NCBI GenBank assembly: GCA_964610245.1
Contig: CAZSVK010000032.1
Coordinates: 1-21,035 of the forward strand
Reading direction: 5' to 3'
DNA length: 21,035 bases
Source of the DNA: an uncultured bacterium
GTDB taxonomy: Bacteria; Muiribacteriota; UBA6191; JACPRK01
Part shown: positions 606 through 18,506 of the stretch, piece by piece
Numbering within the stretch: the stretch's first letter is position 1
How the letters are laid out: each line of letters starts with the position of its first letter
The notes under the pieces: generated by a model
Database searches by the model: none
What the model was told of the DNA's origin: nothing
The model's input: only the letters and a program-made list of their open reading frames with translations
Position numbers and translations under genes: made by a program

Positions 606-2591
606 TTACCGCTTCCTTCTCGACTCCACGACCGGCTCGGGCGCGGTCGGCGTCGGCGGTTCGGGCGCGGCCGTGGGGGCCGCCCCCTTCTCCTCCGCCG
701 GGCTGGCCGCGCTGGCGACCTTCGCGGCGAGCTCGGCCGCCGCCGAGACCACGCTGGCCAGCTTGCTCGAGGTCGCTGTCTCGGTGAGGAAACCCTCGAC
801 CGACTGCCGGATCGACATGCCCTGGCTGAACGACTCAGCCATGCGGCTGAAGGTGGTCGGGTCTCCGTAGATGGTGAAGTTGCCGCGGGAGAGCATCGTC
901 CCGATCGCCTGGGCCCGTGCGATCTCGACCTGGCCCTGGGTCTCGATCGCCTTCAGGCGCACCTGGAGATCGATGGCCGCCTTGCCATACATCTCCTGGA
1001 CCTCGAGTCGGCGGGACTCGACCTCGACCTTCTGGCGCTCGACCTCGACCAGCCGCTGCTGCACCGTGACGGTGACGCTCTGCTCGGCGGTGGCGCCTTC
1101 CGCCCGCTTCTTGGCCGCCTCGGCGTCCGCGTCGGCTCGCTTCTTCGTGGACTCGGCATCGGCTTCGGCCGATTTCATCCGGGCCTCGTACTCGGCCTGG
1201 GCGGCGGCCTTCTTCGCCTCGGCCTCCTTGAGCACGGTGTACGCCGCGGCGTCGGCTTTGCGCTGCTCGCGGACCAGGTCCTGATCGGCAGCCTTGGAGG
1301 CGGCGATGAGCTTCTGGTCGCCCTCGCGGTTGGCCTGGGCCTTGATCTTGACCGTCTCGATCTCCTGGGCGGCCTTCTCCCGCTCGGCCATCTTGAGCAG
1401 TTGTCCGGCCTCGGCCTCGGCGCGCTGTGTCTGGGCCTCGGCAATGGCCGTGAGCTTCTGCTGCTGCGCGGTCTCGATAGCCTTCTGTTTCTCGACCTCG
1501 GTCAGCTCGCGCTGTCTCTCGGCCTCGATGACCCGCTTCTGGGCCTCGACCATCGCCATCTCGATGGTGTTCTGCTTCTCGACGTCGGCCAGTTCGCGCT
1601 GGCGTTCGCTCGCCAGCACCTTCTGCTGGGCTTCGAGTTCGGCCGCCTTGATGGCGCGGCCTCGCTCGACCTCGCGGGCCTGCACGTACTGCTCCTGCTC
1701 GATCTGGGCCTGCTTCGACTCGGCCTCGCGCTGGGCCTGGATCTTCGCAATCTCCATCTGCTGGCCGGCCTCGGCCTCGGCCTGCTGCTGCTCGAGCTTG
1801 AGGATCTGCAGGCGCGTCTGGACGTTGCGCTCCTTCATCGCCTGCTGCGCGAACTGCTCCGACTCGTTGCGCTTCACCATCGCCTCGGTGGTGATCTCGG
1901 TGATGCGCTTGAGACCCTGGGCGTCGAAGACGTTGTCGGCCTTCAGGTTCTCAGGGGCGGTCTGGTCGAGCTTCGAGATGGTCACGGTCTCGAGCGTCAG
2001 GCCGTTGTGCTTGAGGTCGGGCTCGACCTGCTGCTTGACCTCGGCCGCGAACTCGTTGCGCCGCGTGTTCAGCTCTTCCAGAGTGCGGTTGGCGGCGACC
2101 GAGCGCAGGGCGCTGATCAGCTTGTCGTTGACCAGATTGGCGATCATCTCGGGCTGGTCGGCCAGGGGGCCGAGCGAGCGGGCCGCATTCTGGATGTCCT
2201 CTGCCTGAGGCATTACCCTGATGTAAAACTCGGCTTTCAGATCGGCGCGCAGCTTGTCGGCGGTGATGAGGGAATCGGGGCCCGAACGATCGACGTCGAG
2301 CCGTGTCGTGGTCAGCGGGACACGCACCAGCTCGTGCATCACGGGGATGATGAGCGCACCCCCGTCCAGGATGACCCACGTGCCGCCCCAGCCGGTGCGG
2401 ACGAACGCCTCGTTGGCGGCCGGCCGGACATAGAGCCGGGTCACCGTGGCCACGCTCACTCCGAGGGCGAGCAGCACCACGCCGAAGCCGCTGACGACCA
2501 CCTGGCTGGCCGTGCTGTTCATCACGGGGATCATGTACGGGCCGACGATCAGGACGATCGAGAAACCGATCCAGAGAGCCATCTTACCCAT
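606..2591 (-). CDS. yqiK: flotillin-like SPFH/Band-7 domain protein, YqiK type (661 aa): N-terminal TM helix, SPFH domain, long Glu/Ala/Gln-rich coiled coil with ERQREL-x-VEKQ repeats, Ala/Pro-rich C-tail
   Basis: ATG at 2591 and TAA at 606-608. The N-terminus MGKMALWIGFSIVLIVGPYMIPV is hydrophobic. The SPFH-like region (FVRTGWGGTWVILDGGALIIPVMHELVRVPLTTTRLDV...) matches the flotillin/YqiK pattern from memory. The coiled coil is highly repetitive. The gene sits 4 nt downstream of an NfeD-like gene, the yqiJK arrangement. Confidence 0.85.
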   Translation of the reverse strand: MGKMALWIGFSIVLIVGPYMIPVMNSTASQVVVSGFGVVLLALGVSVATVTRLYVRPAANEAFVRTGWGGTWVILDGGALIIPVMHELVRVPLTTTRLDVDRSGPDSLITADKLRADLKAEFYIRVMPQAEDIQNAARSLGPLADQPEMIANLVNDKLISALRSVAANRTLEELNTRRNEFAAEVKQQVEPDLKHNGLTLETVTISKLDQTAPENLKADNVFDAQGLKRITEITTEAMVKRNESEQFAQQAMKERNVQTRLQILKLEQQQAEAEAGQQMEIAKIQAQREAESKQAQIEQEQYVQAREVERGRAIKAAELEAQQKVLASERQRELADVEKQNTIEMAMVEAQKRVIEAERQRELTEVEKQKAIETAQQQKLTAIAEAQTQRAEAEAGQLLKMAEREKAAQEIETVKIKAQANREGDQKLIAASKAADQDLVREQRKADAAAYTVLKEAEAKKAAAQAEYEARMKSAEADAESTKKRADADAEAAKKRAEGATAEQSVTVTVQQRLVEVERQKVEVESRRLEVQEMYGKAAIDLQVRLKAIETQGQVEIARAQAIGTMLSRGNFTIYGDPTTFSRMAESFSQGMSIRQSVEGFLTETATSSKLASVVSAAAELAAKVASAASPAEEKGAAPTAAPEPPTPTAPEPVVESRRKR

Positions 2592-2595
2592 AGCG

Positions 2596-3597
2596 TTACC
2601 GGCCTTTCACCCTTCGCGCCCCGGGGTGCTTTCTGGCTTGCCGCCCGCGCGCTCGAGCATGCGCCGAAGCGGGTTCCGCCAGGGGCCGAGCATCCGGGTG
2701 CGCATCGATCGGCTCGGCCAGATAGAGGGACTGGGATTCGTCGTAGTCGAGGAAGAGGATCTTGCTTCCGAGTTCGAACTTCGTCCCCGGACTGCCGTGG
2801 ACGTGAACCTCGAGCAGGTTGTGGTTGGGATCGTAGACCTGCGCGTAGGCCCCGCCGTCGCTGAGCGTGCCGGTGATGGTGCCGGTCTGGCCCACGCAAT
2901 CGCAGCGCTGCAGCGCATAGGTTTCCATCCGGGGCAGCACTCGGGCGAACGTCCTGGCGAAGGTCCTGCTGATCGCGAGCCCTCCGCCCATCGCCAGGGC
3001 CATCGAGAGCCAGACGTACACGAGCGGGGGCAACAGCTGGCCGAGCAGGTGGTTGGACACCAGCCCGATGATCCCGAAGGAGAGGGACAGGACGACCAGG
3101 ACCAGCATCAGGGGGGCCCGGTCGGCTCCGGGCAATGCCAGGGCCCACTGCATCCACCCAGGCGAGTGGGCCTCGTCGGTGCCGTGACCCGGCTCCGCGT
3201 CGTGGGCGGTGGCGAGCGTCGCATCGTGCACGACGTCGCCAGACGCCTCGGCATCGTGGTCGACCTCGGCGTGCAGGTCGTGGTCCGCATCGGCGTCCAG
3301 GTCATGGTCGACCTCGACATGTACCTCGTTCCCGAGATCGACGTGTACCTCGTTCTCGATCGCGACATCCAGATCGTGGTCGACGTCGGCATGGAAGTCG
3401 TGGTCGACGTCGGCGTGCAGATCGTGGTCGACGTCGGCGTGCAGGTCATGACCGACCTCCGCATCGTGACCGGCCTCGGCGTCATGGTCGGTATCATGCC
3501 CCTCCGTGCCCGGACCGAGAGCGGCCATCATCGACAGCATGCACGCCGTCAGGACGGGCAGCTCGAAGATCAGGTTCCACCAGGCCAGCCACTCCAT
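2596..3597 (-). CDS. yqiJ: NfeD/YqiJ-like membrane protein (about 334 aa) with an inserted His/Asp-rich (LHADVDHD)n repeat region between the first TM segment and the C-terminal TM plus OB-fold (NfeD) domain
   Basis: The six-frame ORF runs to 4431, but everything upstream of the Met at 3597 is antisense to the epimerase gene. MEWLAWWNLIFELPVLTACMLSMMAALG is a TM segment. The C-terminal part (LMLVLVVLSLSFGIIGLV...CDCVGQTGTITGTLSDGGAYAQVYDPNHNLLEVHVHGSPGTKFELGSKILFLDYD) resembles the NfeD short-form beta-barrel. The stop TAA at 2596-2598 lies 4 nt before the flotillin start. An alternative start is the Met at 3627. Confidence 0.7.
   Translation of the reverse strand: MEWLAWWNLIFELPVLTACMLSMMAALGPGTEGHDTDHDAEAGHDAEVGHDLHADVDHDLHADVDHDFHADVDHDLDVAIENEVHVDLGNEVHVEVDHDLDADADHDLHAEVDHDAEASGDVVHDATLATAHDAEPGHGTDEAHSPGWMQWALALPGADRAPLMLVLVVLSLSFGIIGLVSNHLLGQLLPPLVYVWLSMALAMGGGLAISRTFARTFARVLPRMETYALQRCDCVGQTGTITGTLSDGGAYAQVYDPNHNLLEVHVHGSPGTKFELGSKILFLDYDESQSLYLAEPIDAHPDARPLAEPASAHARARGRQARKHPGARRVKGR
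3253..3492. repeat. intragenic tandem array of about ten 24-bp units (consensus atcgtggtcgacgtcggcgtgcag), inside the yqiJ-like gene; encodes (L/F)HADVDHD on the minus strand
   Basis: Units phase exactly at 24 bp from 3253. Units 3397-3420 and 3421-3444 differ only at their first base. Degenerate copies extend to about 3190 and 3500. Confidence 0.85.
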
Positions 3598-3676
3598 CTC
3601 AGAGGGGACCCTCGCCGGCCCTGGCATCGAACACGGGCGGTTCCACGGCCAGGCGGCGAGCTGAACCCGAGCGCAG

Positions 3677-3682
3677 TATATA
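3677..3682. promoter_or_regulatory. TATATA element in a 165-bp divergent intergenic region (yqiJ-like gene to the left, epimerase operon to the right); candidate -10 box
   Basis: It is the only AT-rich hexamer in this otherwise very GC-rich intergenic stretch, 81 nt upstream of the epimerase start and 80 nt upstream of the yqiJ-like start. No convincing -35 element is visible. Confidence 0.35.
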
Positions 3683-3719
3683 CCAGGACCTCGCCGGTCG
3701 GGCCTCGGGATGCTCCCGC

Positions 3720-3733
3720 CTGCGGTCCCGCAG
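3720..3733. promoter_or_regulatory. 14-bp palindrome CTGCGG-tc-CCGCAG 30 nt upstream of the epimerase start; candidate operator or 5'-UTR hairpin
   Basis: Read directly: 6-bp perfect inverted arms around a 2-nt spacer. Confidence 0.35.
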
Positions 3734-3762
3734 TGGCGCCGGGCAGCCTCAGTTGGTAGAGT

Positions 3763-4761
3763 TTGCGCGTGCAAGTCAGAGGCGGGCGCTTTGCGGTCAC
3801 CGGTGGGGCCGGATTCATCGGGAGCAACCTGGTCCGGGCGCTGCTGGCCGGCGGCGCGGCCAGGGTCGCGGTGCTCGACAACCTGGTCCGGGGCAGGGCC
3901 CGCCATCTGGAAGATCTTGCGGGCGACCGGCGCCTCGAACTGTTGCTCGGCGATCTTCGCGAGAGCTGGCCCGCGGAGGCGGTCGTGCGCGACTGCGACG
4001 CGGTCTATCACCTGGCCGCTCTGCGCATCCCTCGGTGTCAGGAACGGCCGGACGAGTGCCTGGACTCGATGGTTCGCGGCACCTATTCGCTCTTCGACGC
4101 CGCCGCCCGGCATGCCGTGAAGAAAGTGATCTACGCCAGTTCGGTGGCGGTCTACGGACAGCCGGCGCGCCTGCCGGTCGACGAAGAAGCCCCGGCGGCC
4201 CCGACGACTTTCTACGGCGCGGCCAAGGCGGCCGGCGAGGGATTGCTGAGGGCCTTCGGCGCGCGCGGCGCCTTTGGGTGGACCATCCTGAGGTGCTTCA
4301 ACGTGTACGGGCCTCGGATGGACCACGCCGGTCCGCACACCGAGGTCCTCGTCCGGTGGATGCGGGCCCTGCGGTGCGGCCAGCCTCCGAGGGTGTTCGG
4401 CGACGGAGAGACGACGCTCGACCTGGCGCACGTCGACGATGTCGTGACCGCCTACCTGGCGGCCCTGGCTCCCCGGGCGTCGGGGGGCATCTACAACATC
4501 GGCGCCGGTACCCAGGTCTCGCTGGCCTCCCTGGCCCGGATGCTGGCCGCTGCCGCGGGGAGCGGTCTCGAGCCCGAGTTCGCGGCGGCCCCTCCGGCGG
4601 CGCTCGCCCCTCGCATGGAGGCGTCCGTGGAACGGGCCCGTCGCGAGCTGGGGTTCGTGCCTCGTGTGCCCTTGAGCGATGGCCTTGCCTCGCTCTGGCG
4701 CTGGTTCTGCGAGGTCGACGCCCCTTCCGCCGACGCCCGGAACGCCGAGGTGGCGGAATGA
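3763..4761 (+). CDS. NAD-dependent epimerase/dehydratase, extended SDR family (332 aa); nucleotide-sugar 4-epimerase or decarboxylase type
   Basis: N-terminal Rossmann motif VTGGAGFIGSNLV and catalytic S...YGAAK (YxxxK) are present. The start is TTG at 3763 (alternative GTG at 3769). The stop TGA at 4759-4761 overlaps the next start as ATGA. Confidence 0.85.
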   Translation: MRVQVRGGRFAVTGGAGFIGSNLVRALLAGGAARVAVLDNLVRGRARHLEDLAGDRRLELLLGDLRESWPAEAVVRDCDAVYHLAALRIPRCQERPDECLDSMVRGTYSLFDAAARHAVKKVIYASSVAVYGQPARLPVDEEAPAAPTTFYGAAKAAGEGLLRAFGARGAFGWTILRCFNVYGPRMDHAGPHTEVLVRWMRALRCGQPPRVFGDGETTLDLAHVDDVVTAYLAALAPRASGGIYNIGAGTQVSLASLARMLAAAAGSGLEPEFAAAPPAALAPRMEASVERARRELGFVPRVPLSDGLASLWRWFCEVDAPSADARNAEVAE

Positions 4762-6566
4762 CCGCCATCCTGGGGCTGGGCTTCGGCATCGATTCGGCCG
4801 CGGCGCTGGTCGTGGACGGCCGCGTCGACTCCGCGGCCGCGCAGGAGCGGTTCGATCGCCGGAAGCACTCCCGGGCCTTTCCGATGGACGCGCTCAGGTT
4901 CTGTCTGGGCAGGGCCGGCCTCGACCCCGGCGCGCTCGAGCGGGTTGCGTTCTTCTGGAACCCGGGCGAGCACCTGCGAAACTTCGACTCCCGGCGGGGG
5001 ATGACCTACCGCGACCATCGCGAGTTCCTGGAACTGGTGCCCTCGCATCTGCTGGGCCTGGGGCCGGATCCCGGTCCGGCCGACGTGACCGAGCAGACCT
5101 TCCGCTTTGCCGGCGGGCGGAAGCTCACCATCCAGTATGTAGCGCACCACCTGTGCCACGCGGCCGCCGCCTTCTATCCGAGCGGCTACGACGAGGCGGC
5201 CATCCTGACCGCCGACGGCTACGGCGAGAGCACGAGCTTGCTGATGGCGCGCGGCCGCGACACGCGCATCGAATGTCTCGGCCAGGTGAGCTTTCCCAAC
5301 TCGCTGGGCGCCGTCTATGCTGCGGTGACCGAGCACCTGGGGTTTGCCCCCAACTGCGACGAGGGCAAGGTAATGGCCCTGGCCGCCTGCGCCGAGCCGG
5401 CCTTCTCCCGCGAGTTCGAGCAACTCCTGCGGCTGACCGACGAGGGCCGCTTCGAGGTCGACCTGTCGTACTTCTCGTTCTATCGCCCGGCCCGTTCTCG
5501 CTGTTCGGAAAAGTTTCAGGCGGCGTTCGGCCCCGCGAGGTCCCCTGGAGCGTCGCTCGAGAGGCGCCACGAACAGCTCGCGGCCAGCCTGCAGCAGCGC
5601 GTGGAACAGGCGCTCGTGCATGCCGCGCGGCACCTGCGCCGCGTCTCGGGCTGCCGGCGGTTGGTGATGGCCGGCGGGGTGGCCCTGAACACGGTGGCCA
5701 ACAGCCTCGTCCTGGCCGAGGCGGGGTTCGACGAGCTGTGGGTGTGCCCACCGGCGTCGGATGCCGGGGCGGCGATGGGGGCCGCCTTGTACGCGACCCA
5801 CGCGTTGGACGGAGCGCCGCGGGACGGCGCCGAGTACACCGACTTCCTCGGGCCCGACTACTCGGCCGACGAGGTCCGGGCGTTCCTGACGAGCGCCGGC
5901 GCCGCCTTCGAGGAGTGCCCGGAGCCCGCGCGCGAGGCCGCCCGCCGGCTGGCGGCGGGCGAGATCGTCGGCTGGTTCCAGGGCCGGATGGAGTACGGTC
6001 CCCGGGCGCTGGGAAACCGCTCGATTCTTGCCGATCCGCGCCAGGCCTCGATGAAGGACGTTGTGAACTCCCGCGTTAAACACCGCGAGCCGTTTCGCCC
6101 GTTCGCGCCGGCCTGCCCCGAGGAGTCCGCGCCGGCCTACTTCACGGGCGCGCACCCGTCGCCGTACATGATGAGGGTGTTCGGTTTCGCGCCGGGCTGG
6201 GGCGAACGCCTGGCGGCCGTCCGCCACGTCGACGGCACGGCGAGGCTGCAGACCGTGGCGGCCAGGCAGAACGCCAGCTTTCACAGCCTGCTGCTCGCGA
6301 TGGGCGAGGCGACCGGAACGCCGGTCCTCCTCAACACCTCGTTCAACGACGCGGGCGAGCCGATCGTGCGGACCCCGGCCGAGGCGCTCAAGTGCTTCTG
6401 CTCGACGGGGCTCGATTCGCTGTTCCTCGGGCCCTACCTGATTGCGAAACCTGCGGGCGAGCCGCCGCGGGGGGCGAGCGGGTGCAGGGCCGGAGCCCCT
6501 GCGTTCAATGATGACGGCGCAGCACGCGAAGCGGGCCAGCTCGCTCGGGCGCCCGGGCGGGAGTGA
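4758..6566 (+). CDS. carbamoyltransferase, NodU/CmcH/NovN family (602 aa)
   Basis: ATG at 4758 overlaps the upstream stop. The motifs GFGIDSAAALV and YVAHHLCHAAAAFYPSG match the family His-motif from memory. The C-terminal domain has GRMEYGPRALGNRSILADP, highly conserved in this family. The last ~35 aa form an extra tail. Confidence 0.9.
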   Translation: MTAILGLGFGIDSAAALVVDGRVDSAAAQERFDRRKHSRAFPMDALRFCLGRAGLDPGALERVAFFWNPGEHLRNFDSRRGMTYRDHREFLELVPSHLLGLGPDPGPADVTEQTFRFAGGRKLTIQYVAHHLCHAAAAFYPSGYDEAAILTADGYGESTSLLMARGRDTRIECLGQVSFPNSLGAVYAAVTEHLGFAPNCDEGKVMALAACAEPAFSREFEQLLRLTDEGRFEVDLSYFSFYRPARSRCSEKFQAAFGPARSPGASLERRHEQLAASLQQRVEQALVHAARHLRRVSGCRRLVMAGGVALNTVANSLVLAEAGFDELWVCPPASDAGAAMGAALYATHALDGAPRDGAEYTDFLGPDYSADEVRAFLTSAGAAFEECPEPAREAARRLAAGEIVGWFQGRMEYGPRALGNRSILADPRQASMKDVVNSRVKHREPFRPFAPACPEESAPAYFTGAHPSPYMMRVFGFAPGWGERLAAVRHVDGTARLQTVAARQNASFHSLLLAMGEATGTPVLLNTSFNDAGEPIVRTPAEALKCFCSTGLDSLFLGPYLIAKPAGEPPRGASGCRAGAPAFNDDGAAREAGQLARAPGRE

Positions 6567-6573
6567 AGCCGAC

Positions 6574-8592
6574 GTGAGCAAGAAGCCTTTCGCCAACGAG
6601 TCGCTGACCATCGTGATTCCCGCCTACAACGAGGAGGCGTCGCTCGAGACGGTGTTCCGGGAGGTCCGGGAGCACGCTGCCTTGCTGGTGGGCCGACTCG
6701 AGATGATCGTGGTGGACGACGGCTCGACCGACGGTACCGGCGAGGTGGCCGCTCGCCTCGCCCGGGAGCACCCCTCCACGCGGGCCTTTCACCATCTGCG
6801 CAACCAGGGCAGCGGGCAGGCGATCCTGACCGGCGCGCGCCAGGCCCGGACCGCGCTGGTGATGTACGTGCCCGCCGACGGACAGTTCCATCTGCCGGAG
6901 CTGGCGACCTACCTGGAGGCGGCGCGCCGCGGCCAGGTCGTCATGGGGGCTCGGCCTGAGCGGCCCGACTACTCGGCGTTCCGCCGGCTGGCGTCGCGGG
7001 TGTTCCTGCGTCTGGCCAACGCCGTGCTCGGGACCGACTTCGCGGACCTCAACTGGGTGCACCTGTGGCGCCGCGAGGTCTTCGAAGACACCACGCTCAG
7101 AGCGCGAGGCGTGGCCTTCCTCGCCGATCTGGTGGCCCAGGCGCTGGCCCGCGGCATGTCGGTGGTCCAGGTGCCCTCGCTGCAGCAGCCCCGTCGGGGC
7201 GGCCGCGCGAACGGGACCCGGCCGGCGGTGATCGCGCTGGCGGCGTTCGAACTCGGCCGCATCTGGCTGCGCTCTCGCCGCCGCCTGGCCCCCCGGATGC
7301 GCCCCGGCCGAGGAGTTCTCCAGAGCTATCTCGGTGACTTCTGGTGGCCGGGCGGGCGTCACCGGACCGGCTCCGCCACGGCCTCGGGCAGGGGCCAGAC
7401 GGTGCTGCCCAGGTTGGAGGAGGTCGAGCTGGCGCCGGTGATCCGGGCCCCCTGGATGGACTCGGAAGACCGCCTGCTCCTGCCGATCGGCGTGGCGGTC
7501 GAGCCGATGCCCGAGGGGGCCGAGGTGCTGGCCCGGGTCGAAGGCAGGCCGGTGCTGGTGAAGGAAGAGGCCGGCCTCCGCTTCCTGTTCGACGCCGAGC
7601 AGGCCGCTGCCTGGCGACTGACCGAGGCCTTTCTCTGCCGCCGCAGACCGCTTGCGGCCTGGCTCCCTCCCGGCTACATCTCGCTGCTGCCGGGTCCTGT
7701 GCGGCTGGCGCTCCACCGGCTCTCGACCCTTGGGCGTTCGCCTCGCACGGGCCTGGCCGTGTGGCCCGCCGACCCGTCGGTCGAGTGGCTCAGGTGGGCG
7801 CACCTTCAGGCCCGGGGCTCCCGCGGCGAGGACCGGCAACCGCTTCCCTTCTGGCCCGAGGGGAAGCGCTGGGCCCTGGTGGTGACGCACGACGTCGACA
7901 CGGTCGAGGGGCTGGGCTCCGTCCCCATCGTGGCCGATACCGATCGCGAGCTGGGCTTCCGCCCCTGCTGGTACGTGACCGGAGAGGTGGCTCGCGCGGG
8001 TCTCTCTCAGCTCGACGGGCTGGTGGCTCGCGGTCACGAGCTGGGCCTCCACGGGGATCGACACGACCTGCGGCTGGCCTATCTGCCGCGCCCGGAGATC
8101 GAGCGCCGGCTCGAGACCTGTGCCGACCTGATCTCCAGGTGGAAGATGCGCGGCTACCGGTCGCCCGGTCTTCTGATGACGCGCCGCCTCGCTGGGGTCG
8201 TGGCGCGCTTCTTCGAGTACGACAGCTCGGTGCCGGACAGCGACGTCGCCAGCCCCGCGGGCGCGATTCGAGGCTGCGGCACGGTGTTCCCGTTCGCGCG
8301 CCCCGAGGGCGGGCTCGAGTTGCCGCCGACCCTCCCGCTGGAAGACAAGCTCGCCGCCCTGGGCTACCCCCCGCGAGAGATGCTGGGCATCTGGAGGCAG
8401 AAGATTGATTTCATCCGCAAGGTAGGAGGGATGGCGGTCGTGACCACGCACGCCGAACCCCACCTGGGCGGCTCTCGAGAGTTGCTGGAGGTCTACGCCG
8501 AGTTCCTGGGCGGTCTGGCCGGAGACGCCGACGCCTGGGCGGCCCAGCCCTCCGAGGTGGCGGCCTGGTGGGCCCGCCGGGGAGAACGCTGA
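6574..8592 (+). CDS. bifunctional fusion: N-terminal GT2 polyprenyl-phosphate glycosyltransferase (ArnC/GtrB/DPM1-like) plus C-terminal NodB-type polysaccharide deacetylase (ArnD-like); about 672 aa with a ~220-aa middle region of unknown function
   Basis: GT2 motifs read directly and aligned from memory with E. coli ArnC: LTIVIPAYNEEASL (VSVVIPVYNEQESL), IVVDDGSTDGT (LLIDDGSSDNS), VPADGQFHLPEL (LDADLQNPPEEI), PERPDYSAFRRLASRVF (QNRQDSWFRKTASKMI). The C-terminal LVVTHDVDTVEG...GHELGLHGDRHD is a NodB motif-1/2 pattern of the ArnD RIDVDT type. The start GTG at 6574 is 8 nt after the carbamoyltransferase stop, with GGGAG upstream. An alternative start at ATG 6508 would overlap the previous gene. 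Confidence 0.8.
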   Translation: MSKKPFANESLTIVIPAYNEEASLETVFREVREHAALLVGRLEMIVVDDGSTDGTGEVAARLAREHPSTRAFHHLRNQGSGQAILTGARQARTALVMYVPADGQFHLPELATYLEAARRGQVVMGARPERPDYSAFRRLASRVFLRLANAVLGTDFADLNWVHLWRREVFEDTTLRARGVAFLADLVAQALARGMSVVQVPSLQQPRRGGRANGTRPAVIALAAFELGRIWLRSRRRLAPRMRPGRGVLQSYLGDFWWPGGRHRTGSATASGRGQTVLPRLEEVELAPVIRAPWMDSEDRLLLPIGVAVEPMPEGAEVLARVEGRPVLVKEEAGLRFLFDAEQAAAWRLTEAFLCRRRPLAAWLPPGYISLLPGPVRLALHRLSTLGRSPRTGLAVWPADPSVEWLRWAHLQARGSRGEDRQPLPFWPEGKRWALVVTHDVDTVEGLGSVPIVADTDRELGFRPCWYVTGEVARAGLSQLDGLVARGHELGLHGDRHDLRLAYLPRPEIERRLETCADLISRWKMRGYRSPGLLMTRRLAGVVARFFEYDSSVPDSDVASPAGAIRGCGTVFPFARPEGGLELPPTLPLEDKLAALGYPPREMLGIWRQKIDFIRKVGGMAVVTTHAEPHLGGSRELLEVYAEFLGGLAGDADAWAAQPSEVAAWWARRGER

Positions 8593-9416
8593 TGCCTGGA
8601 AAGAGCTACCAGTTCGACACGGTGGGGGTGCTCTACTCGGGCGGCACCGACAGCACGCTCGCGGCGGTCCTGATGTTGCGCGAGGCCCGCAAGGTCGTCC
8701 TGCTGACGTTCGACCCCGGCTACGTCTTCTTCCTGGCGAACACCAAGGTACACGCGCGGATGCTCGCGGAGCGCTTCGGCGAGGAGAGGGTCGAGCAGCG
8801 CATCATCGACGTCCGGCCGCTCGTGGGCAGGCTGCTCTTCGGCGCCGCTCGGAGCGACTTCGAGAAGTACGCCTTCGGTCTGACCAGCCTGGTCTGTCTG
8901 GGCTGCAGGCTGTCGATGCACGCGGCGGCGATCATCCACCTGCTCGAGACCGGCATTCCGTATCTGGCCGATGGGGCGATCCGTCAACAGTGCGACACGC
9001 CGGAACAGATGGAATCGACCCTGGAGAGCCAGCGGGAGCACTACATGGAGCGCTACGGGCTGGTGCACATGTCCCCTCTCTACGAAGAGGCGCGTTCCGA
9101 CCTGGTGCTGCAGGAGATGGGCCTGGCGGCCTTCCCCGCCCTGAAGAAGCAGTTCATCCTGTACGACACGCAGGCGACCTGCCCGTTCGGAGTGAGTGCC
9201 GACGTTTATGCTCGCATCTTCTACCGGCCCTGGCTGATGGGCGACCGCCGGGAGCGCGACGCCGCCTGCTACCGCGAGGACAAGTACCCGGTGATGGAGC
9301 GCGTCATACGCGAGCACTTCGAGTCGAAGGGGCAGAGCATGGAAGAACTCGTGCGGACCATCCGCGCGACCGTCGAGCGAGATCGGCAGTGGAACTCGCA
9401 GGGAGCGGGCCAGTGA
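8592..9416 (+). CDS. PP-loop ATPase of the adenine-nucleotide alpha-hydrolase superfamily (274 aa); QueC/ExsB-like, or a sugar amidotransferase of the WbpG/PseA type
   Basis: SGGxDS PP-loop motif (VLYSGGTDSTLAAVL) 12 residues from the N-terminus. A Cys pair (LVCLGCRL) is present. Strong RBS GGAGAA 5 nt before ATG 8592, which overlaps the upstream stop (TGATG). Confidence 0.7.
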   Translation: MPGKSYQFDTVGVLYSGGTDSTLAAVLMLREARKVVLLTFDPGYVFFLANTKVHARMLAERFGEERVEQRIIDVRPLVGRLLFGAARSDFEKYAFGLTSLVCLGCRLSMHAAAIIHLLETGIPYLADGAIRQQCDTPEQMESTLESQREHYMERYGLVHMSPLYEEARSDLVLQEMGLAAFPALKKQFILYDTQATCPFGVSADVYARIFYRPWLMGDRRERDAACYREDKYPVMERVIREHFESKGQSMEELVRTIRATVERDRQWNSQGAGQ

Positions 9417-9553
9417 GCGACTTGACGGGGCACCGTCTTCGCGCCCTGTTGCGGTGGCCGCTGGCGGTGTTGCTGATCCCGTTCGGGGTTCTCCTCGGGC
9501 TCTGCGGCCTGCTCGACAACATCTGCCGCGGCCTCGCCGACCGGCGCCGCTGA
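9413..9553 (+). CDS. possible small membrane peptide (46 aa), GTG start overlapping the stop of the PP-loop gene
   Basis: VSDLTGHRLRALLRWPLAVLLIPFGVLLGLCGLLDNICRGLADRRR contains one hydrophobic helix. GTGA overlap at 9413-9416. There is no independent support, and it could be a chance ORF given the high GC. Confidence 0.25.
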   Translation: MSDLTGHRLRALLRWPLAVLLIPFGVLLGLCGLLDNICRGLADRRR

Positions 9554-9564
9554 CCGGCGGACGC

Positions 9565-12500
9565 CTATTCGGGCCGGCCGGAACGCTCGCTCGGTTCCTT
9601 CGGCTGAGGGGGGCCGATGACGGGCACGGTGTCGAGCGAGGGCGCCCCCGGCGAGAGCGGCGGCCGCTGCAGCCTGACGACGCCGAAGCCGCTGGCCACG
9701 CCTCCGAGGCCGAGCAGCAGCTCGTGCTCGTCCAGCGGCCGGATCGCCAGCTTGAATGCCACCTTGGATTCGTACGCGGGAAGCGGATCCGGCAGGACTT
9801 CCATCCGCACGAGGATCCGGCCCTCGGGGGTGAAGCCCAGGAGTCGGTTTCCCTCCACCAGAACGTAGAGGTTACCCTTCGGGCCGCAGGTCATGCGAGA
9901 TAGCGCGGTGACGTCCACGGCCCGCCAGAAGTCGAACTCCCTCCCTTCCGCCGAGAGCACGGCGATACCGCCCCTCCGCTGGGTCGTGACGTAGATCCGC
10001 TGCCCGTCCGGCGAGCTGCAGAGCGACGTCGCGCCGAAGCAGTTCCAGGCGGGCTTCGGCTCGCCGTCGGGCTCGAACCGCAGGATCTTCCCCGACAGAG
10101 AGTCGGCGACCAGCACGGTGGACGAGGCCGCGTCGTAGGCGATCCCGCTGAGCCGGTGCGTCTCGCCGGCAAAGGTGACGAGACGGTTCAATTGCCCGTC
10201 CGGTCGGATGAACAGCAGCCGGCTGGCATAGCAGTCGGCCAGGAAGAGCGTGCCGTCGGGCGCGGTCGCGAGCGAGTAGCCGAAGCGCAGGAAGCCCCGG
10301 GTGGGAGGCAACTCGATCGGCCGGTCCTGCTGGTCTCGCAGCCCCTTCCAGGAGCGCACCGGGGCCCCGTCCAGGTCGAGGCAGAGGAGGGGGGCCCGGC
10401 CGTGGCCCAGCAAGTAAATGCGACCGTTCACAAACGCCATGTCTTGCGTGCGCCCTCCGATTTCGGGCTCGACCCAGTATCGGTACCGGACGCTGGCCAC
10501 CGAAAGTTCCGGCTCCACGACCGGTCTGGCGCGGAAGAGCGCGTTCGCCGGGAGCTTGCGCAGGAACACCTCGGACGGCACCTCGGAGAACCGGTCGAAA
10601 GACGGCGGGCGCCAGGAGAACGAGATCGGGCCGACCGTCGTCCGGGCCGTGGTCGCGCGGGCCGAGAAAGCCTGCCAGCCCTCCGGGAACCACCCGGAGA
10701 GGCCGCACCCTCCGGCGCTCGAGCTGGCCGTGCGCTCCCCGATCGAGAGGATGGCACCGCGGGTCCCGTCGAACCGGAAGTCCCACAGTCCCTCCTGGTG
10801 CAGATAGAGCGCCCCGGTCCACCGGTAACCGCGGTCCGGTTGCAGGGCGATGCCCGGCATGTTCAGGCCCGAGACCAGCAGGTCCGGCGACGTGTTCACA
10901 TCCAGCCCGGAGGACAGATAGAGCCCCTGGAAGGAATGGGCCTCCCGCCGGGAAACGGTGTAGAGGTCGAGTCCGCAACCGCTGCCCGCGGGCCCCTCCC
11001 AGCGCTCGTGCCGTCCGCCGGGAAACGTCTCTTCCAGCAACTTCTGCCACTCCTCCTTGCCCAGGACGTAGCTGACGTCGGACCAGGAAGGGAAGACGGG
11101 AAAGAGGTTCAGACCGAGGGCCGAGACCACGCCGAAGTTGTTCAGGAGGAAGGCGAGGTTGGGAGCCATGCCCATCTGTCCCGTGAGGAACGGATAGCGT
11201 ACGGTCGACTGAGAGACGACAACCTGGCGCTCGGGCGCGAGGTGCGCCGCGGCGCGGAGAAGCTTCTCCTGCGGGGGCATCATCCCGATCTGCGAGCACA
11301 TCCTCACCAGGCTGTGGTGCAGGTCCGAGAACTCGGCGGCGATCAGGGCCAGGAACGCGGCCATCAGGACCAGGCCGCGTCGGCCGGTCGCAAGACACGT
11401 CCAGAGTCTGTCGAGCCCCAAGGCGAGCCAGATGTAGAGCGGCACGATGCCGAGCAGGAAGCGGCGCGCGGCGGCAGCCTCGAAGTGCACGACCAGGGGC
11501 GGGAGAAGCGCCAGGGAGATGAGCGAGACCGTCAGCGCGTCGGTCAGCGTGGAACCAGTCGGCGCGGCGGGGGCGAGCGCTCCTGGGCCGGCTGCGCCGC
11601 GGGGGGGGGCTGGCTGCGGCCGCGTCGGGTCCCGGTGCCCGGCCCGCAACAGAGCGAGCGCCCCGAGCAGGGCCAGCGGCACCAGGCTGCGAGGAAGCGG
11701 CACGAACCCCTCCAGATACGGCTCCACTCCGAGGAAGATGCCGGCAACGTCCGGCACCCGCCGCAGGGCGTGTCCCAGCGCCTCGACCGGGGACATCCCT
11801 GCCGTCGTCATCCTCGTCAACCGCCCGGCGTACAGCTCGAGTGTCGAGGCGTCCTGGACGAAAGGCGAGAAGAGGGCGAGCGTGACCACGAACGTCAGCA
11901 AGCAGCCGAGCATCAGCCGGCCGGGCAACGTCCGGCGTGACGACCAGCATCCCAGGGCCAGGATCGTCAGCAGGATGGGCGGGACGATCCGGAAGGCCGG
12001 ATAGGTATGGAGTCCGGCGCCCAGCATCAGCCCCATGCCCAGGAAGTCGGTCAGCCGTCCGGTCGACAGCGCCCGGACCATGAAGAGCAGCGCGCCGGCT
12101 TCGAACACGGCGGGGTAGATGATGGTGTTGGCCTGTCTGCTGAAGTGGCACAGCGTGGGGTCGACGGCGGCGAGCAGCGCGGCCAGGGCCGCGGGCAGAC
12201 GCCGCGCGAGCCTGCGAAACAGCCAGAACAGGAGCACCGGACAGCAGGCCCCGAGCAGCGCCGCCGGAAGCCGGAAGGCGAGCATCGTGGGGCCGAACAG
12301 GCTGAAGCTGAAGGCGTGCAGATAGAAGAACAGCGCCTCCTCGCCCGGCACGGCCCGATCCAGCACCGGGCCCGGTTGCCACGTGTGATTGAGGATGCCG
12401 GCGATGAGCCCGCCGTTGATTCCCTCGTCGAGGTTGGGCGAGGGCGGCCGGAACTCCAACCAATAGAACCTGGCGAGCAATGCCAGCGCGAAGACCGCCA

Positions 12501-12714
12501 GCGTGATGAGCTGGTCCGCCGAGGAGAACGGCTCGGGTCTCGTCGGTTTCTCTTGCGGCCGAGCCGCGCGGTAGAGCAACACCGCCACCGCCGACATCAG
12601 GCACGCGGCCGGCAGCAGGTTCCCCCGCTCGGAGGGCGCCAGAGCGAGGTTGAGCAGACTGGCCCCCGCCAGCCCGAGAAACACCCATCTTCGTCCTGTG
12701 GAACCCTGGACCAC
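9565..12714 (-). CDS. large GT-C-fold membrane glycosyltransferase (GT39 PMT / GT83 ArnT-like, multi-TM N-terminus with DE loop motif) fused to a PA14-like middle domain and a C-terminal NHL-repeat beta-propeller (1049 aa)
   Basis: GTG at 12714 and TAG at 9565-9567. The N-terminal ~450 aa has more than 10 hydrophobic helices, and PNLDEGINGG sits in the first loop; a DE motif there is the PMT/ArnT hallmark. The middle GYRWTGALYLHQEGLWDFRFDGTRGAILSIGERT is PA14-like. C-terminal repeats LFLADCYASRLLFIRPDG, VLVADSLSGKILRFEPDG, IYVTTQRRGGIAVLSAEG and LYVLVEGNRLLGFTPEG are NHL-like. GGAGG lies 11 nt upstream of the start. Confidence 0.8.
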   Translation of the reverse strand: MVQGSTGRRWVFLGLAGASLLNLALAPSERGNLLPAACLMSAVAVLLYRAARPQEKPTRPEPFSSADQLITLAVFALALLARFYWLEFRPPSPNLDEGINGGLIAGILNHTWQPGPVLDRAVPGEEALFFYLHAFSFSLFGPTMLAFRLPAALLGACCPVLLFWLFRRLARRLPAALAALLAAVDPTLCHFSRQANTIIYPAVFEAGALLFMVRALSTGRLTDFLGMGLMLGAGLHTYPAFRIVPPILLTILALGCWSSRRTLPGRLMLGCLLTFVVTLALFSPFVQDASTLELYAGRLTRMTTAGMSPVEALGHALRRVPDVAGIFLGVEPYLEGFVPLPRSLVPLALLGALALLRAGHRDPTRPQPAPPRGAAGPGALAPAAPTGSTLTDALTVSLISLALLPPLVVHFEAAAARRFLLGIVPLYIWLALGLDRLWTCLATGRRGLVLMAAFLALIAAEFSDLHHSLVRMCSQIGMMPPQEKLLRAAAHLAPERQVVVSQSTVRYPFLTGQMGMAPNLAFLLNNFGVVSALGLNLFPVFPSWSDVSYVLGKEEWQKLLEETFPGGRHERWEGPAGSGCGLDLYTVSRREAHSFQGLYLSSGLDVNTSPDLLVSGLNMPGIALQPDRGYRWTGALYLHQEGLWDFRFDGTRGAILSIGERTASSSAGGCGLSGWFPEGWQAFSARATTARTTVGPISFSWRPPSFDRFSEVPSEVFLRKLPANALFRARPVVEPELSVASVRYRYWVEPEIGGRTQDMAFVNGRIYLLGHGRAPLLCLDLDGAPVRSWKGLRDQQDRPIELPPTRGFLRFGYSLATAPDGTLFLADCYASRLLFIRPDGQLNRLVTFAGETHRLSGIAYDAASSTVLVADSLSGKILRFEPDGEPKPAWNCFGATSLCSSPDGQRIYVTTQRRGGIAVLSAEGREFDFWRAVDVTALSRMTCGPKGNLYVLVEGNRLLGFTPEGRILVRMEVLPDPLPAYESKVAFKLAIRPLDEHELLLGLGGVASGFGVVRLQRPPLSPGAPSLDTVPVIGPPQPKEPSERSGRPE

Positions 12715-12837: not shown

Positions 12838-14214
12838 TCAGATCAGGTCGTGGCTGGGCGACGAGTTCACGAAACCCGCGAGCCGCTTCAGCCCGAGCCA
12901 GGCGTCGACGGGCCTCGACATGACCCTCCCGAGCTGCCGCAGAGCGTAGCCCGGCCGCAGGTAGAACCGGCGGTAGAACTTCTGCTCGGCAGCGAGGGTG
13001 CTGTCGGGCGCCGTGACGGGTCGGAAGGGGAAGAGCGACGATGGCCGGGAGTCGAGCCCCAGCGAGGTGCCGGGCCAGTACTGGAGGCGGGTGACGATGA
13101 CGAAGTCGAGGTCCCAGTCGATGGCGGCGCGGATGCTGGCGTCGATGTCGGAGGGGGTCTCCCAGGGCGTGCCGACGATGAAGAAGCCGCTCAGCTCGAG
13201 GCCCGCGTCGCGCACCTGGCGGACGAGCCTGGGCATCTGCTCGGCGCGGTAGCCCTTCCGCAGGGAGTCGAGCACGAGTTGCGAGGTGCTCTCCAGACCG
13301 ACGTAGAGGCGGCGGCAGCCGGCGCGTCGCATCTCGGCCAGCAGCGAGGGCTCGAGGCAGTCGAGGCGCGAGAGGGCGGTCCATTCGAGGTCCAACCGCT
13401 CGCGCGACAGCAGACGGCAGAGTTCGAGGAGACGCGGCCGGTCGAGCGGCAGCGTGTCGTCCATGAAGCGGAGGTTGCGGACTCCGTGGCGGCCGGCGAG
13501 CAGGCGGGCCTCGTCGAGGATGTTGCCGGGACTGCGGTAGCGCATCTGGCGGCCGTAGGTGCGCGTGCAGAAGACGCAGGCGTGCGAGCAGCCGCGGGCA
13601 CTGAGGGTGACCGCGATCGGGCCCGGGCGCAGCGGCTCGGCGTAGAGCGAGAGGTCGACCAGCGAGTGGTCGGGCAGCGGCAGCCGGTCGAGGTCGTCGA
13701 TGCGGGGCCGCCGCGGGTTGACCACCGGTTGGCGGCCGTCCCGGAAGGCCAGGCCCGGGACCCCGGCGAGCGTCGTGCGGGTGGCGAGGCAGTCGAGGAG
13801 GTCGGCGAAGACGAGTTCGGGCTCGTCCAGGAGCACGACGTGCAAGGGGCAGTGCTCGAGCACGTCGGCCGGAAACTCGGATGGGAGGTAGCCGGTGGCG
13901 CAGACGGTGGCGTGGGGGTGGTCGGAAACCAGCGCGGCGGCGGCGGCGAGGTCGCCCGGGAAGGTCGAGAAGCCCACGGCGAGCACGATGACGTCCGGCC
14001 CGAAGCGCACCGCCTCTCGGCGCACGCCGTCGAGGTCGAGGTCCCGGGCGACGGCGTCGACGACCAGCACGTCGCTGCCCTTCCAGTCGCGGGCGAGCGC
14101 CGCAAGCCCCATCAGCTCCATCGGAGGCATCAGGAAGTTGGGCGCGTAGTACGACGCGGTCCAGCGGCGCATGACGCGCTCCCGGGCCGGTGGATTGAGG
14201 AAGAGGACTCGCAC
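12838..14214 (-). CDS. B12-binding radical SAM enzyme, class B (458 aa); probable methyltransferase or other radical tailoring enzyme
   Basis: N-terminus MRVLFLNPP starts the cobalamin-binding domain. The radical SAM cysteine triad is CSHACVFC (CxxxCxxC). GTG start at 14214 with GGGGAG upstream. Stop TGA at 12838-12840. Confidence 0.85.
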   Translation of the reverse strand: MRVLFLNPPARERVMRRWTASYYAPNFLMPPMELMGLAALARDWKGSDVLVVDAVARDLDLDGVRREAVRFGPDVIVLAVGFSTFPGDLAAAAALVSDHPHATVCATGYLPSEFPADVLEHCPLHVVLLDEPELVFADLLDCLATRTTLAGVPGLAFRDGRQPVVNPRRPRIDDLDRLPLPDHSLVDLSLYAEPLRPGPIAVTLSARGCSHACVFCTRTYGRQMRYRSPGNILDEARLLAGRHGVRNLRFMDDTLPLDRPRLLELCRLLSRERLDLEWTALSRLDCLEPSLLAEMRRAGCRRLYVGLESTSQLVLDSLRKGYRAEQMPRLVRQVRDAGLELSGFFIVGTPWETPSDIDASIRAAIDWDLDFVIVTRLQYWPGTSLGLDSRPSSLFPFRPVTAPDSTLAAEQKFYRRFYLRPGYALRQLGRVMSRPVDAWLGLKRLAGFVNSSPSHDLI

Positions 14215-14271: not shown

Positions 14272-14850
14272 CTACGGTGTCCGGAGCCGCCTCGGCGCGA
14301 CCGGGCGGGCGGGGTTGCCGGCGACGACCGCCCCGTCGGGGACGTCTCGCGTCACGACGGCGCCGGCGCCGACGAGCGCGCCCCGGCCGACGACGACCCC
14401 CGGGAGGATGGTGGCGTTGACTCCGATGCGGGCGCCGCTGCGGACGACCGGGCCCTCGAGGTCCCCGGGGCCGCGGACGGGGTACTTGTCGTTGGCGAAG
14501 ACGACGCCCGGGGCGACGAAGACGTCGTCCTCGAGGACGGTGAACTGGGCGAGGTAAACTCCGGAGTGTATCTTGACCCGATCGCCGACCGTGCAGCCGT
14601 AGTCGACGATGCTGTTGCTCCAGATCGAGACCTGGCGCCCGATGCGGGTCTGCTCGCGAACGACGACGTTGTGCCCGGTCTCGAAGTCGTCTCCGATGAC
14701 GACGTTGGTGTAGAGGACGGTGCCCGAGCGCAGACGGGCCCGGGCGCCGAGCACGCCGGGCACGATCTCGATGGCCCGCGAGGGCCGGTAGTCGAGCAGC
14801 ACGCCGGGCTCGAGCCCCGGATTGGCTTGCCCTTCGCTCACGGGACTCAC
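14272..14850 (-). CDS. hexapeptide-repeat (left-handed beta-helix) acyltransferase (192 aa); sugar N- or O-acetyltransferase of the WbbJ/PglD/QdtC type
   Basis: Repeated [LIV]-G-x-x-x-x hexapeptides (IGRQVSIWSNSIVDYGCTVGDRVKIHSGVYLAQFTVLEDDVFVAPGVVFAND). The GTG start at 14850 overlaps the upstream stop (GTGA). Confidence 0.8.
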   Translation of the reverse strand: MSPVSEGQANPGLEPGVLLDYRPSRAIEIVPGVLGARARLRSGTVLYTNVVIGDDFETGHNVVVREQTRIGRQVSIWSNSIVDYGCTVGDRVKIHSGVYLAQFTVLEDDVFVAPGVVFANDKYPVRGPGDLEGPVVRSGARIGVNATILPGVVVGRGALVGAGAVVTRDVPDGAVVAGNPARPVAPRRLRTP

Positions 14851-15323
14851 GGTTTGCCGGCCCCGGTCCTGGCAGGCGCGGGCGCGGGGGGCTCAGCCTT
14901 GGGAGGGGCCTTGCCGAGCGGGTCGGCGACGCAGGGGCTGGGGAGAAAGCCGGACTGCTTGCGCTCGTCGAGACTGGCCTTGGCGTCCTTCTTCTGCAGG
15001 GCGTCGAGCGCCTCGGCGAGCGGCTTGACCCGGCCCGAGAGCTTGCGGTCGTGGCGGGCGTACCAGAGATAACGCCGCAGGCACTTGGCCTCGTGCCTCA
15101 GGGTCTCGGCCTCCATCTTGATCGCCTTGTCCTCGGCGCCGTGCTTGACCAGCAGCCTCTCGCGCTCGAGCCTGAGCCGGAGCCAGCGCAGCGAGGCCTC
15201 GCAGTCCTTGTCGATCGCGGCGCCGGAATCGGGTAGCGGCTCGTCGGAGGCCGCGGCCGGCCCGGATCCCTGGCAGGCGAGCCCGAGGGCGAGGAGCGCG
15301 GCCAGGGCGAGCGGGCGCGTCAT
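14847..15323 (-). CDS. small secreted or lipoprotein-like protein (158 aa) with a signal peptide, four Cys, a charged helical core and a Pro/Ala-rich C-terminal tail
   Basis: ATG at 15323 overlaps the HEAT-2 stop (ATGA). The signal peptide is MTRPLALAALLALGLACQGS. The tail is FLPSPCVADPLGKAPPKAEPPAPAPARTGAGKP. The stop overlaps the acyltransferase start. Confidence 0.6.
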   Translation of the reverse strand: MTRPLALAALLALGLACQGSGPAAASDEPLPDSGAAIDKDCEASLRWLRLRLERERLLVKHGAEDKAIKMEAETLRHEAKCLRRYLWYARHDRKLSGRVKPLAEALDALQKKDAKASLDERKQSGFLPSPCVADPLGKAPPKAEPPAPAPARTGAGKP

Positions 15324-16720: not shown

Positions 16721-16738
16721 CGCTTGGCGGAAGGCAGG

Positions 16739-18421: not shown

Positions 18422-18506
18422 GAACCGGACTCCTGCCGGACGGTGCCGGCATCTGCCGATCATATCGATGCAGCGCCCGAAAGTAAAGGCACCCGGGGCG
18501 TCGGGC

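Follow-up and report, generated by a model that had tools for sequence, protein, structure and literature searches.

A gene encoding a polyprenyl-phosphate-type glycosyltransferase domain and a CE4/NodB deacetylase unit in one polypeptide, within a conserved gene cluster of an uncultured bacterium

The fused gene and its reading frame

The window analysed here is a 21,035-nucleotide stretch of DNA from an uncultured bacterium of the Muiribacteriota (assembly GCA_964610245.1, contig CAZSVK010000032.1, positions 1 to 21,035 of the forward strand), and the subject of this work is a gene within it whose product of 672 residues carries a glycosyltransferase (GT) domain of the GT-A fold at its N-terminus and a deacetylase unit ending in a CE4/NodB barrel at its C-terminus (Table 1). 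An earlier note on this DNA had described the gene as a fusion of an ArnC-like GT to an ArnD-like deacylase, and the presence of both domains in one polypeptide was confirmed by a Pfam match of the N-terminal part (PF00535, E = 2e-22), by a match of the family profile of the C-terminal part to the protein of Protein Data Bank (PDB) entry 3rxz (E = 2.5e-18), and by the motif HDVDT at residues 439-443.

Since the window is about 70% G+C, it contains many long spurious open reading frames (ORFs), and the ORF that encloses the gene in the ORF list spans 6442-8592 on the plus strand. The likely start is the GTG at 6574, which lies 8 nt past an upstream stop codon at 6564-6566; with this start the product has 672 residues, as many as its closest homologue (P0001, 96% identity), and the N-terminal sequence MSKKPFANE is identical in the two proteins. 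The G+C content at third codon positions (GC3) in the frame of the gene stays between 0.8 and 0.97 from approximately 6540 to 8500 with no switch, apart from one 60-nt dip at 7980, and another frame becomes dominant only past 8520; the continuity of the frame, which the earlier note had asked to be checked, is borne out by this steady signal. The stop codon TGA of the gene (8590-8592) overlaps the ATG (8592) of the following PP-loop gene as TGATG (8590-8594), and the stop of the operon's first gene, encoding a short-chain dehydrogenase/reductase (SDR), overlaps the start of the carbamoyltransferase gene as ATGA at 4758-4761. These start/stop overlaps indicate that 3763-9416 is a tightly coupled operon of four genes with translational coupling. 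Altogether, the fusion is a single uninterrupted gene that encodes both domains in one chain.

Domain architecture of the fused protein

The N-terminal domain belongs to the ArnC/DPMS/GtrB clade of polyprenyl-phosphate GTs by sequence and by fold. The Pfam match covers residues 12-147; a phmmer ranking against PDB sequences placed ArnC first (1.4e-13), followed by PfDPMS (3e-11), PcManGT and GtrB (5e-6), and a Foldseek search with an AlphaFold2 (AF2) model returned ArnC, GtrB and PfDPMS as the top matches. The NCBIfam models that aligned over the whole domain were those of ArnC, AglJ, a dolichyl-phosphate hexose transferase and PpgS, each of which describes a transferase of polyprenyl- or dolichyl-phosphate sugars, and all of them scored far under their equivalog cut-offs: the ArnC equivalog (NF007986) scored 63.9 bits over residues 10-199 against a curated cut-off of 529, and the PpgS model scored 38 bits against 370. 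The model of the GT HpnB reached just 30.6 bits. Orthology to ArnC is ruled out by the score of that model, and the designation of the domain as ArnC-like in the earlier note stands for its fold and clade and falls for membership of an Arn system, as judged from the same score, from a proline at residue 100 and from the non-Arn neighbours of the gene.

The motif DDGS is found at residues 48-51, and D48/D49 and D158 are present. From the structure of ArnC, DADLQ(N/D/H) has been defined as the family motif; its first Asp is proposed to act as a base on the acceptor phosphate, its second Asp and its Gln to bind the metal, and R128 and R137 to hold the phosphate of undecaprenyl phosphate (UndP) (PMC12690121). 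The corresponding motif of the window protein is PADGQF at residues 100-105 (window 6871-6888), which retains D102 and Q104 and has P100 at the position of the first Asp. R127 and R137 align with R128 and R137 of ArnC (BLASTP, phmmer), and both are kept in the orthologues except P0004. The proline is common to all GT2 domains associated with a deacetylase unit that were tabulated, namely those of the window, P0001-P0005, and the GT2s of loci L003, L018, L021 and L022, and in this clade NWVHLW stands in place of DCAFK; the GT2s that come next in similarity, fused to GtrA or PMT domains, carry DADGQF. The GT domain ends in a basic amphipathic helix (residues 217-238), and the pairing of amphipathic and transmembrane (TM) helices that characterises the clade is not present. 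No TM helix was found anywhere in the window protein, the maximum 19-residue Kyte-Doolittle mean being 1.54 and lying inside the GT2 fold, in agreement with the earlier note. In comparison, the neighbouring GT2 of an Omnitrophota locus (L015) has C-terminal hydrophobic stretches, read from its translation, that are consistent with a TM hairpin of the ArnC/GtrB type.

The region between the two catalytic domains had been described in the earlier note as an uncharacterised stretch of about 220 residues. This holds in so far as no Pfam or PDB match was obtained, but roughly 150 of these residues form a conserved, folded N-terminal domain of the deacetylase unit, and only about 40 are linker. The linker is basic (6 Lys/Arg versus 1 Asp/Glu) and predicted to be disordered, and its motif FWWPG (residues 256-260) is kept in most fused forms and lost in P0005. 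A profile of residues 245-672 was searched exhaustively with HMMER against 1.84 billion cluster representatives, which yielded 3077 relatives, with 341 cluster representatives below 1e-30. Most of the best 150 relatives are stand-alone proteins of approximately 350-470 residues that align with profile positions from about 36 to 425, and 9 of these 150 exceed 600 residues. The stand-alone relatives thus align over most of the middle region; the accessory domain is an integral part of the deacetylase unit and not a spacer. An AF2 model built from a 60-sequence family alignment reached a predicted template modelling score (pTM) of 0.92; in it, residues 280-432 have a predicted local distance difference test (pLDDT) score mostly above 90, and the helical region of the accessory domain packs on the barrel. 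The accessory domain has no Pfam family and no PDB counterpart by sequence or by structure, and the stand-alone family is annotated in its source as 'hypothetical protein' at most. A role of the middle region as a membrane anchor was rejected, its hydropathy being too low. As a separate observation, the beta part of the accessory domain (residues 280-337, window 7411-7584) repeatedly matched, without reaching significance, the C-terminal strands of class I glutamine amidotransferases (PdxT, E = 0.64; HisH, E = 1.8), with FxFDPxE of the family aligned to QFHPE of those enzymes.

The C-terminal domain is firmly established as CE4/NodB, despite a sub-threshold Pfam score for the single sequence. 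The window protein alone scored 17.4 bits against PF01522 (E = 0.0044), under the gathering cut-off of 23.1, yet 54 of the 60 aligned family members match PF01522 individually, with a best E value of 5.6e-12, and the match to NodB profiles on which the earlier note had staked its assignment is thereby obtained through the relatives. Furthermore, a profile of six fusions (residues 245-672) matched 3rxz over the whole barrel in the PDB, followed by HpPgdA, 3s6o, chitin deacetylases and PuuE. The distorted beta/alpha barrel fold of CE4 is present, and motifs 1 (base and metal Asp), 2 (His-His), 3 (Arg) and 5 (catalytic His) are all covered; in the 60 sequences, D440, E489, H493, H497, R529 and H626 do not vary, and conservation of D442 reaches at least 90%. 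An hhalign comparison with ArnD was weak (probability 43%), with the HxxxH motif and the catalytic His aligned.

Homologues and gene neighbourhood

Full-length homologues were collected by a word-index search and aligned end to end. The five obtained were P0001 (96% identity, 100% coverage), P0002 (87%, 100%), P0003 from a metagenome-assembled genome (MAG) of the Cloacimonadota (57%, 100%), P0004 from a Wallbacteria MAG (L001/L010; 46%, 100%) and P0005 (46%, 99%). Two more Wallbacteria MAGs (L011 and L014) contain continuous ORFs of 665-668 codons with the same architecture, and P0121, P0178, P0199 and P0251 are further fusions of a GT2 to a CE4 unit. The search for the same fusion in related genomes that the earlier note had suggested was thus successful, at 41-96% identity.

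The two units also occur apart. At L003/L004, a separate GT2 of 230 residues and a separate protein of 432 residues comprising the N-domain and CE4 barrel are encoded in one operon, and this GT2 is 44% identical to residues 11-233 of the window protein, including YVPADGQF and NWVHLW. In a Myxococcota MAG (L018, 9146-11065), a GT2 of 242 codons and an N-domain plus CE4 of 396 codons lie in the same frame with one stop codon (9872-9874) between them, an arrangement that a single point mutation or a single read-through would turn into the fusion; at L022, the two genes overlap. Furthermore, the N-domain plus CE4 unit is fused to a B12-binding radical S-adenosylmethionine (SAM) enzyme in P0211 and P0223 (870-878 residues) and in L015 of the Omnitrophota (8369-11005), and to an SDR epimerase in P0130 (691 residues). 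GT2 is the commonest fusion partner, found in 6 of the 9 long members among the best 150 relatives. This pattern of split and fused forms, of the 'Rosetta stone' kind, indicates that the GT2, the CE4 unit, the radical SAM enzyme and the SDR act in one pathway.

The fusions of the Wallbacteria depart from the others in their catalytic residues. In L011 (9260-11266) and L014 (9260-11266), the CE4 motifs read HGLA, LLATDSELH, RVA and DLEPR, and every catalytic Asp, His and Arg is gone; in P0004 (L001/L010), the CE4 barrel has LLGDRFD, with both metal-site His lost, and the GT2 has PAGGRF, with D102 lost. These Wallbacteria loci are without carbamoyltransferase, PP-loop and radical SAM neighbours, and judging from these motifs the orthologues look catalytically dead.

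Table 1. Features of the fused gene and its surroundings in the 21,035-nucleotide window.
Feature	Coordinates	Strand	Residues	Description and basis
Whole fusion gene	6574..8592	+	1-672	672 aa plus stop; GTG start, TGA stop; ORF list, continuous GC3 frame, full-length homologues
Shine-Dalgarno-like GGGAG	6558..6563	+		10 nt ahead of GTG; sequence read
GT-A glycosyltransferase domain	6574..7293	+	1-240	Pfam, NCBIfam, PDB sequence, Foldseek, motif table, hydropathy
Inter-unit linker	7294..7410	+	241-279	about 40 aa; pLDDT below 50 in both models, alignment, charge count
Accessory N-terminal domain of deacetylase unit	7411..7869	+	280-432	about 150 aa; beta domain 280-337 and helical region 338-432
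CE4/NodB deacetylase barrel	7870..8589	+	433-672	D440, D442 (HDVDT), H493, H497 (LHGDRHD), R529 (RSP), H626 (TTHAEPH)
SDR sugar-nucleotide epimerase/dehydratase	3763..4761	+		first gene of the operon; Pfam, NCBIfam, conserved neighbour
NodU/CmcH-type carbamoyltransferase	4758..6566	+		Pfam, NCBIfam, conserved neighbour
PP-loop (SGGxDS) ATPase-like, DUF7411/QueC-like	8592..9416	+		Pfam; 51% identical to L003 neighbour
PMT_2 GT-C glycosyltransferase	9565..12714	-		1049 aa; Pfam; PMT_2 genes also in L002, L005/L006
B12-binding radical SAM enzyme	12838..14214	-		Pfam, NCBIfam; 47% identical to L003 neighbour
Hexapeptide-repeat sugar acetyltransferase (NeuD/PglB/VioB-like)	14272..14850	-		Pfam, NCBIfam

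The surroundings of the fusion are those of a conserved gene cluster (Table 1), and carbamoyltransferase, GT2, CE4, PP-loop and radical SAM genes are found together at six or more loci that belong to several phyla. L002 (the locus of P0005) and L009 (that of P0003) retain the order epimerase, carbamoyltransferase, fusion, PP-loop, and L002 has in addition genes for GFO/MocA, DegT and PMT_2 proteins. At the loci of the stand-alone homologues (L003/L004, L005/L006, L007, L013, L020 and L022), a carbamoyltransferase, an epimerase, a DegT protein and the N-domain plus CE4 gene are found, and several of these loci also hold the PP-loop gene, the radical SAM gene and a separate GT2 of 230 residues. 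The PMT_2 domain of the window GT-C protein is confined to residues 128-285, with no Pfam match in the long C-terminal part, and the best NCBIfam match of the radical SAM enzyme is HpnJ, at 142.7 bits against a cut-off of 577. A literature search returned no described cluster that combines a polyprenyl GT, a deacetylase and a carbamoyltransferase.

Other genes of the window were noted in passing. Two HEAT-repeat proteins (466 and 574 residues; 15320-18463 and 18507-20666, both on the minus strand) are 63-69% identical to neighbours of the fusion in the Wallbacteria MAGs (L001, L010, L011 and L014), and a Ser/Thr kinase is 59-60% identical to its Wallbacteria counterpart, compared with only 41-46% for the fusion protein itself; the similarity suggests that the window derives from a relative of the Wallbacteria and that the two HEAT-repeat genes are conserved companions of the fusion gene. 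In the region 2600-3760, the plus-strand ORF 2446-3759 has no Pfam or NCBIfam match and the best GC3 frame changes twice, and one or two small minus-strand genes may be located there.

Proposed function and comparison with known systems

With a probability of roughly 55%, the fusion protein would be a bifunctional enzyme that transfers a glycosyl group to a lipid carrier and then removes its N-acyl group, within a conserved pathway for an amino sugar of the cell envelope; such coupling of glycosyl transfer and deacylation, as proposed in the earlier note, is the best-supported function. The GT-A domain would take an N-acylated, most likely N-acetylated, hexosamine from its nucleotide-sugar donor and attach it to a lipid phosphate on the cytoplasmic side of the membrane, where the protein would probably be held by two basic elements, the amphipathic helix 217-238 and the Trp-rich linker. 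The accessory domain and the metal-dependent CE4 barrel would then strip the N-acyl group from the lipid-linked product; from the fusion of the CE4 unit to the GT2, and from their co-occurrence, we infer that its substrate would be an undecaprenyl-phosphate-linked N-acyl amino sugar. Judging from the neighbouring genes, the HpnJ-like B12-radical-SAM enzyme, the carbamoyltransferase and the PP-loop ATPase would tailor the product later, and the PMT_2 GT-C would finally transfer it onto an acceptor of the envelope. GT-C transferases use polyprenyl-phosphate sugars, and the PMT_2 GT-C genes that occur in the window as well as in L002 and L005/L006 provide the context for a polyprenyl-phosphate acceptor; the GT-C of the window is likely a user of a lipid-phosphate-linked sugar.

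Several observations weigh against a coupled reaction on a polyprenyl phosphate. The proposed catalytic-base Asp is replaced by Pro across the whole deacetylase-linked GT2 clade, so that the acceptor or the mechanism may differ. The barrel is nearest to 3rxz, whose function is unknown, to HpPgdA, whose function is unclear, and to the allantoinase PuuE, and not to ArnD. No obvious partner membrane protein or flippase was found in the window, and the protein itself is without a TM helix; at L003, a membrane protein of PF03706 (LPG_synthase_TM, flippase-like; 14418-15425) follows the stand-alone GT2, and no equivalent was seen in the window. The fusion of the CE4 unit to other enzymes of the cluster elsewhere indicates a shared pathway but not necessarily adjacent steps. 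Lastly, the full-length AF2 model built from six sequences is of low confidence (pLDDT 65, pTM 0.42), and the geometry between the domains and the orientation of the active sites in it are therefore unusable.

The strongest rival explanation, which we nevertheless consider unlikely, retains the chemistry and alters the acceptor: an HpnI-like glycosylation of another lipid or small-molecule alcohol would be followed by CE4 deacetylation and an HpnJ-like contraction to an aminocyclitol, and the pathway would yield a glycolipid head group or a natural product instead of a donor for the GT-C. The triad of GT2, deacetylase and B12-radical-SAM enzyme parallels HpnI/HpnK/HpnJ, with HpnJ as the best NCBIfam match of the window radical SAM enzyme (142.7 bits) and the CE4 unit fused either to a GT2 or to a radical SAM enzyme, and both the Pro in place of the phosphate-activating Asp proposed for polyprenyl-phosphate GTs and the missing TM helix of the GT2 would fit such an acceptor. 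However, the HpnJ score is far under its cut-off of 577, the HpnB model scored only 30.6 bits, and no genes for hopanoids or other lipid scaffolds were seen in the window or the related loci; the GT2 is nearest to ArnC, DPMS and GtrB and keeps the Arg residues that bind the phosphate of UndP, and PMT_2 GT-C genes, whose products use polyprenyl-phosphate sugars, recur in the cluster. It is also conceivable, but rather improbable, that the two halves do not catalyse consecutive steps, that the CE4 unit acts on a soluble intermediate (an acetamido or carbamoyl sugar linked to a nucleotide, for example, or a cyclic amide of the kind used by PuuE), and that the fusion serves co-expression or complex assembly only. 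This is what the fusions to an SDR epimerase (P0130) and to radical SAM enzymes (P0211, P0223) in other lineages, the presence of the allantoinase PuuE and proteins of unknown substrate among the nearest structural relatives, and the stand-alone state of the unit in most family members would lead one to expect. PuuE is metal-independent, whereas the full metal-dependent set of Asp-Asp, His-His, Arg and His is invariant in this family; moreover, GT2 is the most frequent partner in the long members, it directly adjoins the CE4 gene in L018 and L022, and the transfer of an N-acetylhexosamine (HexNAc) followed by de-N-acetylation of the glycoside, as by ArnC/D and HpnI/K, fits consecutive action.

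A structural or regulatory role, with one or both domains catalytically dead, has apparent precedents in the Wallbacteria orthologues, in that L011 and L014 are without any CE4 catalytic residue and P0004 has lost both metal-site His residues of CE4 as well as D102 of the GT2. For the window protein this is very unlikely, as it keeps D48/D49, D102, Q104, R127, R137, D158, D440, D442, H493, H497, R529 and H626, and its gene sits in a complete biosynthetic operon. The chance that a frameshift in sequencing or assembly has wrongly joined two adjacent genes is negligible: the two units do occur as separate adjacent genes in L018 and L022, but the GC3 frame is continuous with no switch, and the identical architecture, with the linker motif FWWPG conserved, recurs at 41-96% identity in seven or more further assemblies that are independent of this one, so that a frameshift is no explanation. 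A frameshift or misassembly is thus ruled out by the GC3 plot together with the conserved full-length homologues.

The fusion ties an unannotated family of N-domain plus CE4 proteins of about 400-430 residues, comprising hundreds of clusters at 50% identity, to a GT of the lipid-carrier type and to a conserved cluster. It also points to a candidate type of enzyme for deacetylating lipid-linked HexNAc, a reaction that in the mycobacterial galactosamine pathway, for instance, has yet to be assigned to an enzyme. The PADGQF clade is a natural variant; should it still glycosylate polyprenyl phosphate, the general role of the first Asp of DADLQ as a catalytic base would need revision. A single soluble polypeptide without TM helices should also ease reconstitution of the coupled reaction. 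A far broader proposal is speculative and doubtful: a pathway that has not been described before and is widespread among uncultured phyla, including relatives of the Wallbacteria, Cloacimonadota, Omnitrophota, Myxococcota and Elusimicrobia, might form a lipid-linked HexNAc with a polyprenyl-phosphate-GT-like enzyme lacking the supposed base Asp, de-N-acetylate it with a new two-domain CE4, remodel it with a radical SAM enzyme similar to HpnJ or Cds, which might contract the ring to give an aminocyclitol, carbamoylate it, and transfer it to the envelope with a GT-C. If true, both the cationic or carbamoylated decoration of the envelope and the deacetylase of lipid-linked sugars would represent new classes.

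Among known systems, ArnC followed by ArnD is the precedent for a two-step logic of transfer and deacylation (PMC12690121). The arnBCADTEF system of E. coli and Salmonella is similar to the window in its GT-A enzyme of the same clade and in having a GT-C, ArnT, comparable to the GT-C encoded nearby; it differs in that ArnC and ArnD are two proteins and not one polypeptide, in the TM hairpin, which the window protein is without, and in DADLQN versus PADGQF. The CE4 barrel of the window protein resembles 3rxz and HpPgdA more closely than ArnD and is preceded by an extra N-terminal domain of 150 residues, and in place of ArnA, ArnB and ArnE/F, none of which is encoded at the locus, there are a carbamoyltransferase, a PP-loop ATPase and a B12-radical-SAM enzyme. 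Likewise, the PpgS-Rv3632-Rv3779 galactosamine system of mycobacteria and corynebacteria resembles the window in its TM-less synthase, its lipid-linked HexNAc and its GT-C transfer to the envelope: PpgS is a polyprenyl-phosphate HexNAc synthase without TM helices whose lipid-linked product needs deacetylation by a deacetylase that is still unidentified (PMC9671496), and transfer followed by deacylation is presumed for PpgS/Rv3779. The window GT2 differs from it in scoring far under the PpgS cut-off, and no small membrane partner similar to Rv3632 was seen in the window.

In the HpnI/HpnK/HpnJ route, a GT2 adds GlcNAc, a deacetylase acts on it, and a B12-type radical SAM enzyme then contracts the ring (PMC13459092, PMC5462960). 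All three enzyme types are present in the window cluster, and the radical SAM enzyme has HpnJ as its best NCBIfam match, but the Hpn acceptor is bacteriohopanetetrol, no hopanoid genes lie at the locus, and the scores are far under the Hpn cut-offs. In addition, HpnK is a deacetylase of the YdjC type and not a CE4 enzyme. The stand-alone CE4 proteins 3rxz of M. smegmatis, HpPgdA (3qbu) and PuuE (1z7a) have neither the accessory N-terminal domain of 150 residues nor a GT2, and their substrates are unknown or unrelated (allantoin for PuuE). Proteins annotated as 'bifunctional polysaccharide deacetylase/glycosyltransferase family 2' (P0094 of Amycolatopsis, and P0100) are similar in combining a GT2 and PF01522 in one chain; their GT2, judged by the Pfam sets (PF13632, PF03142), is of the processive PgaC/NodC/chitin-synthase type, and their similarity to the window protein extends over only 13-21% of its length. 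Taken together, these comparisons place the fusion as a new form of a known two-step logic, in a recognisable type of pathway, and not as a new kind of system.

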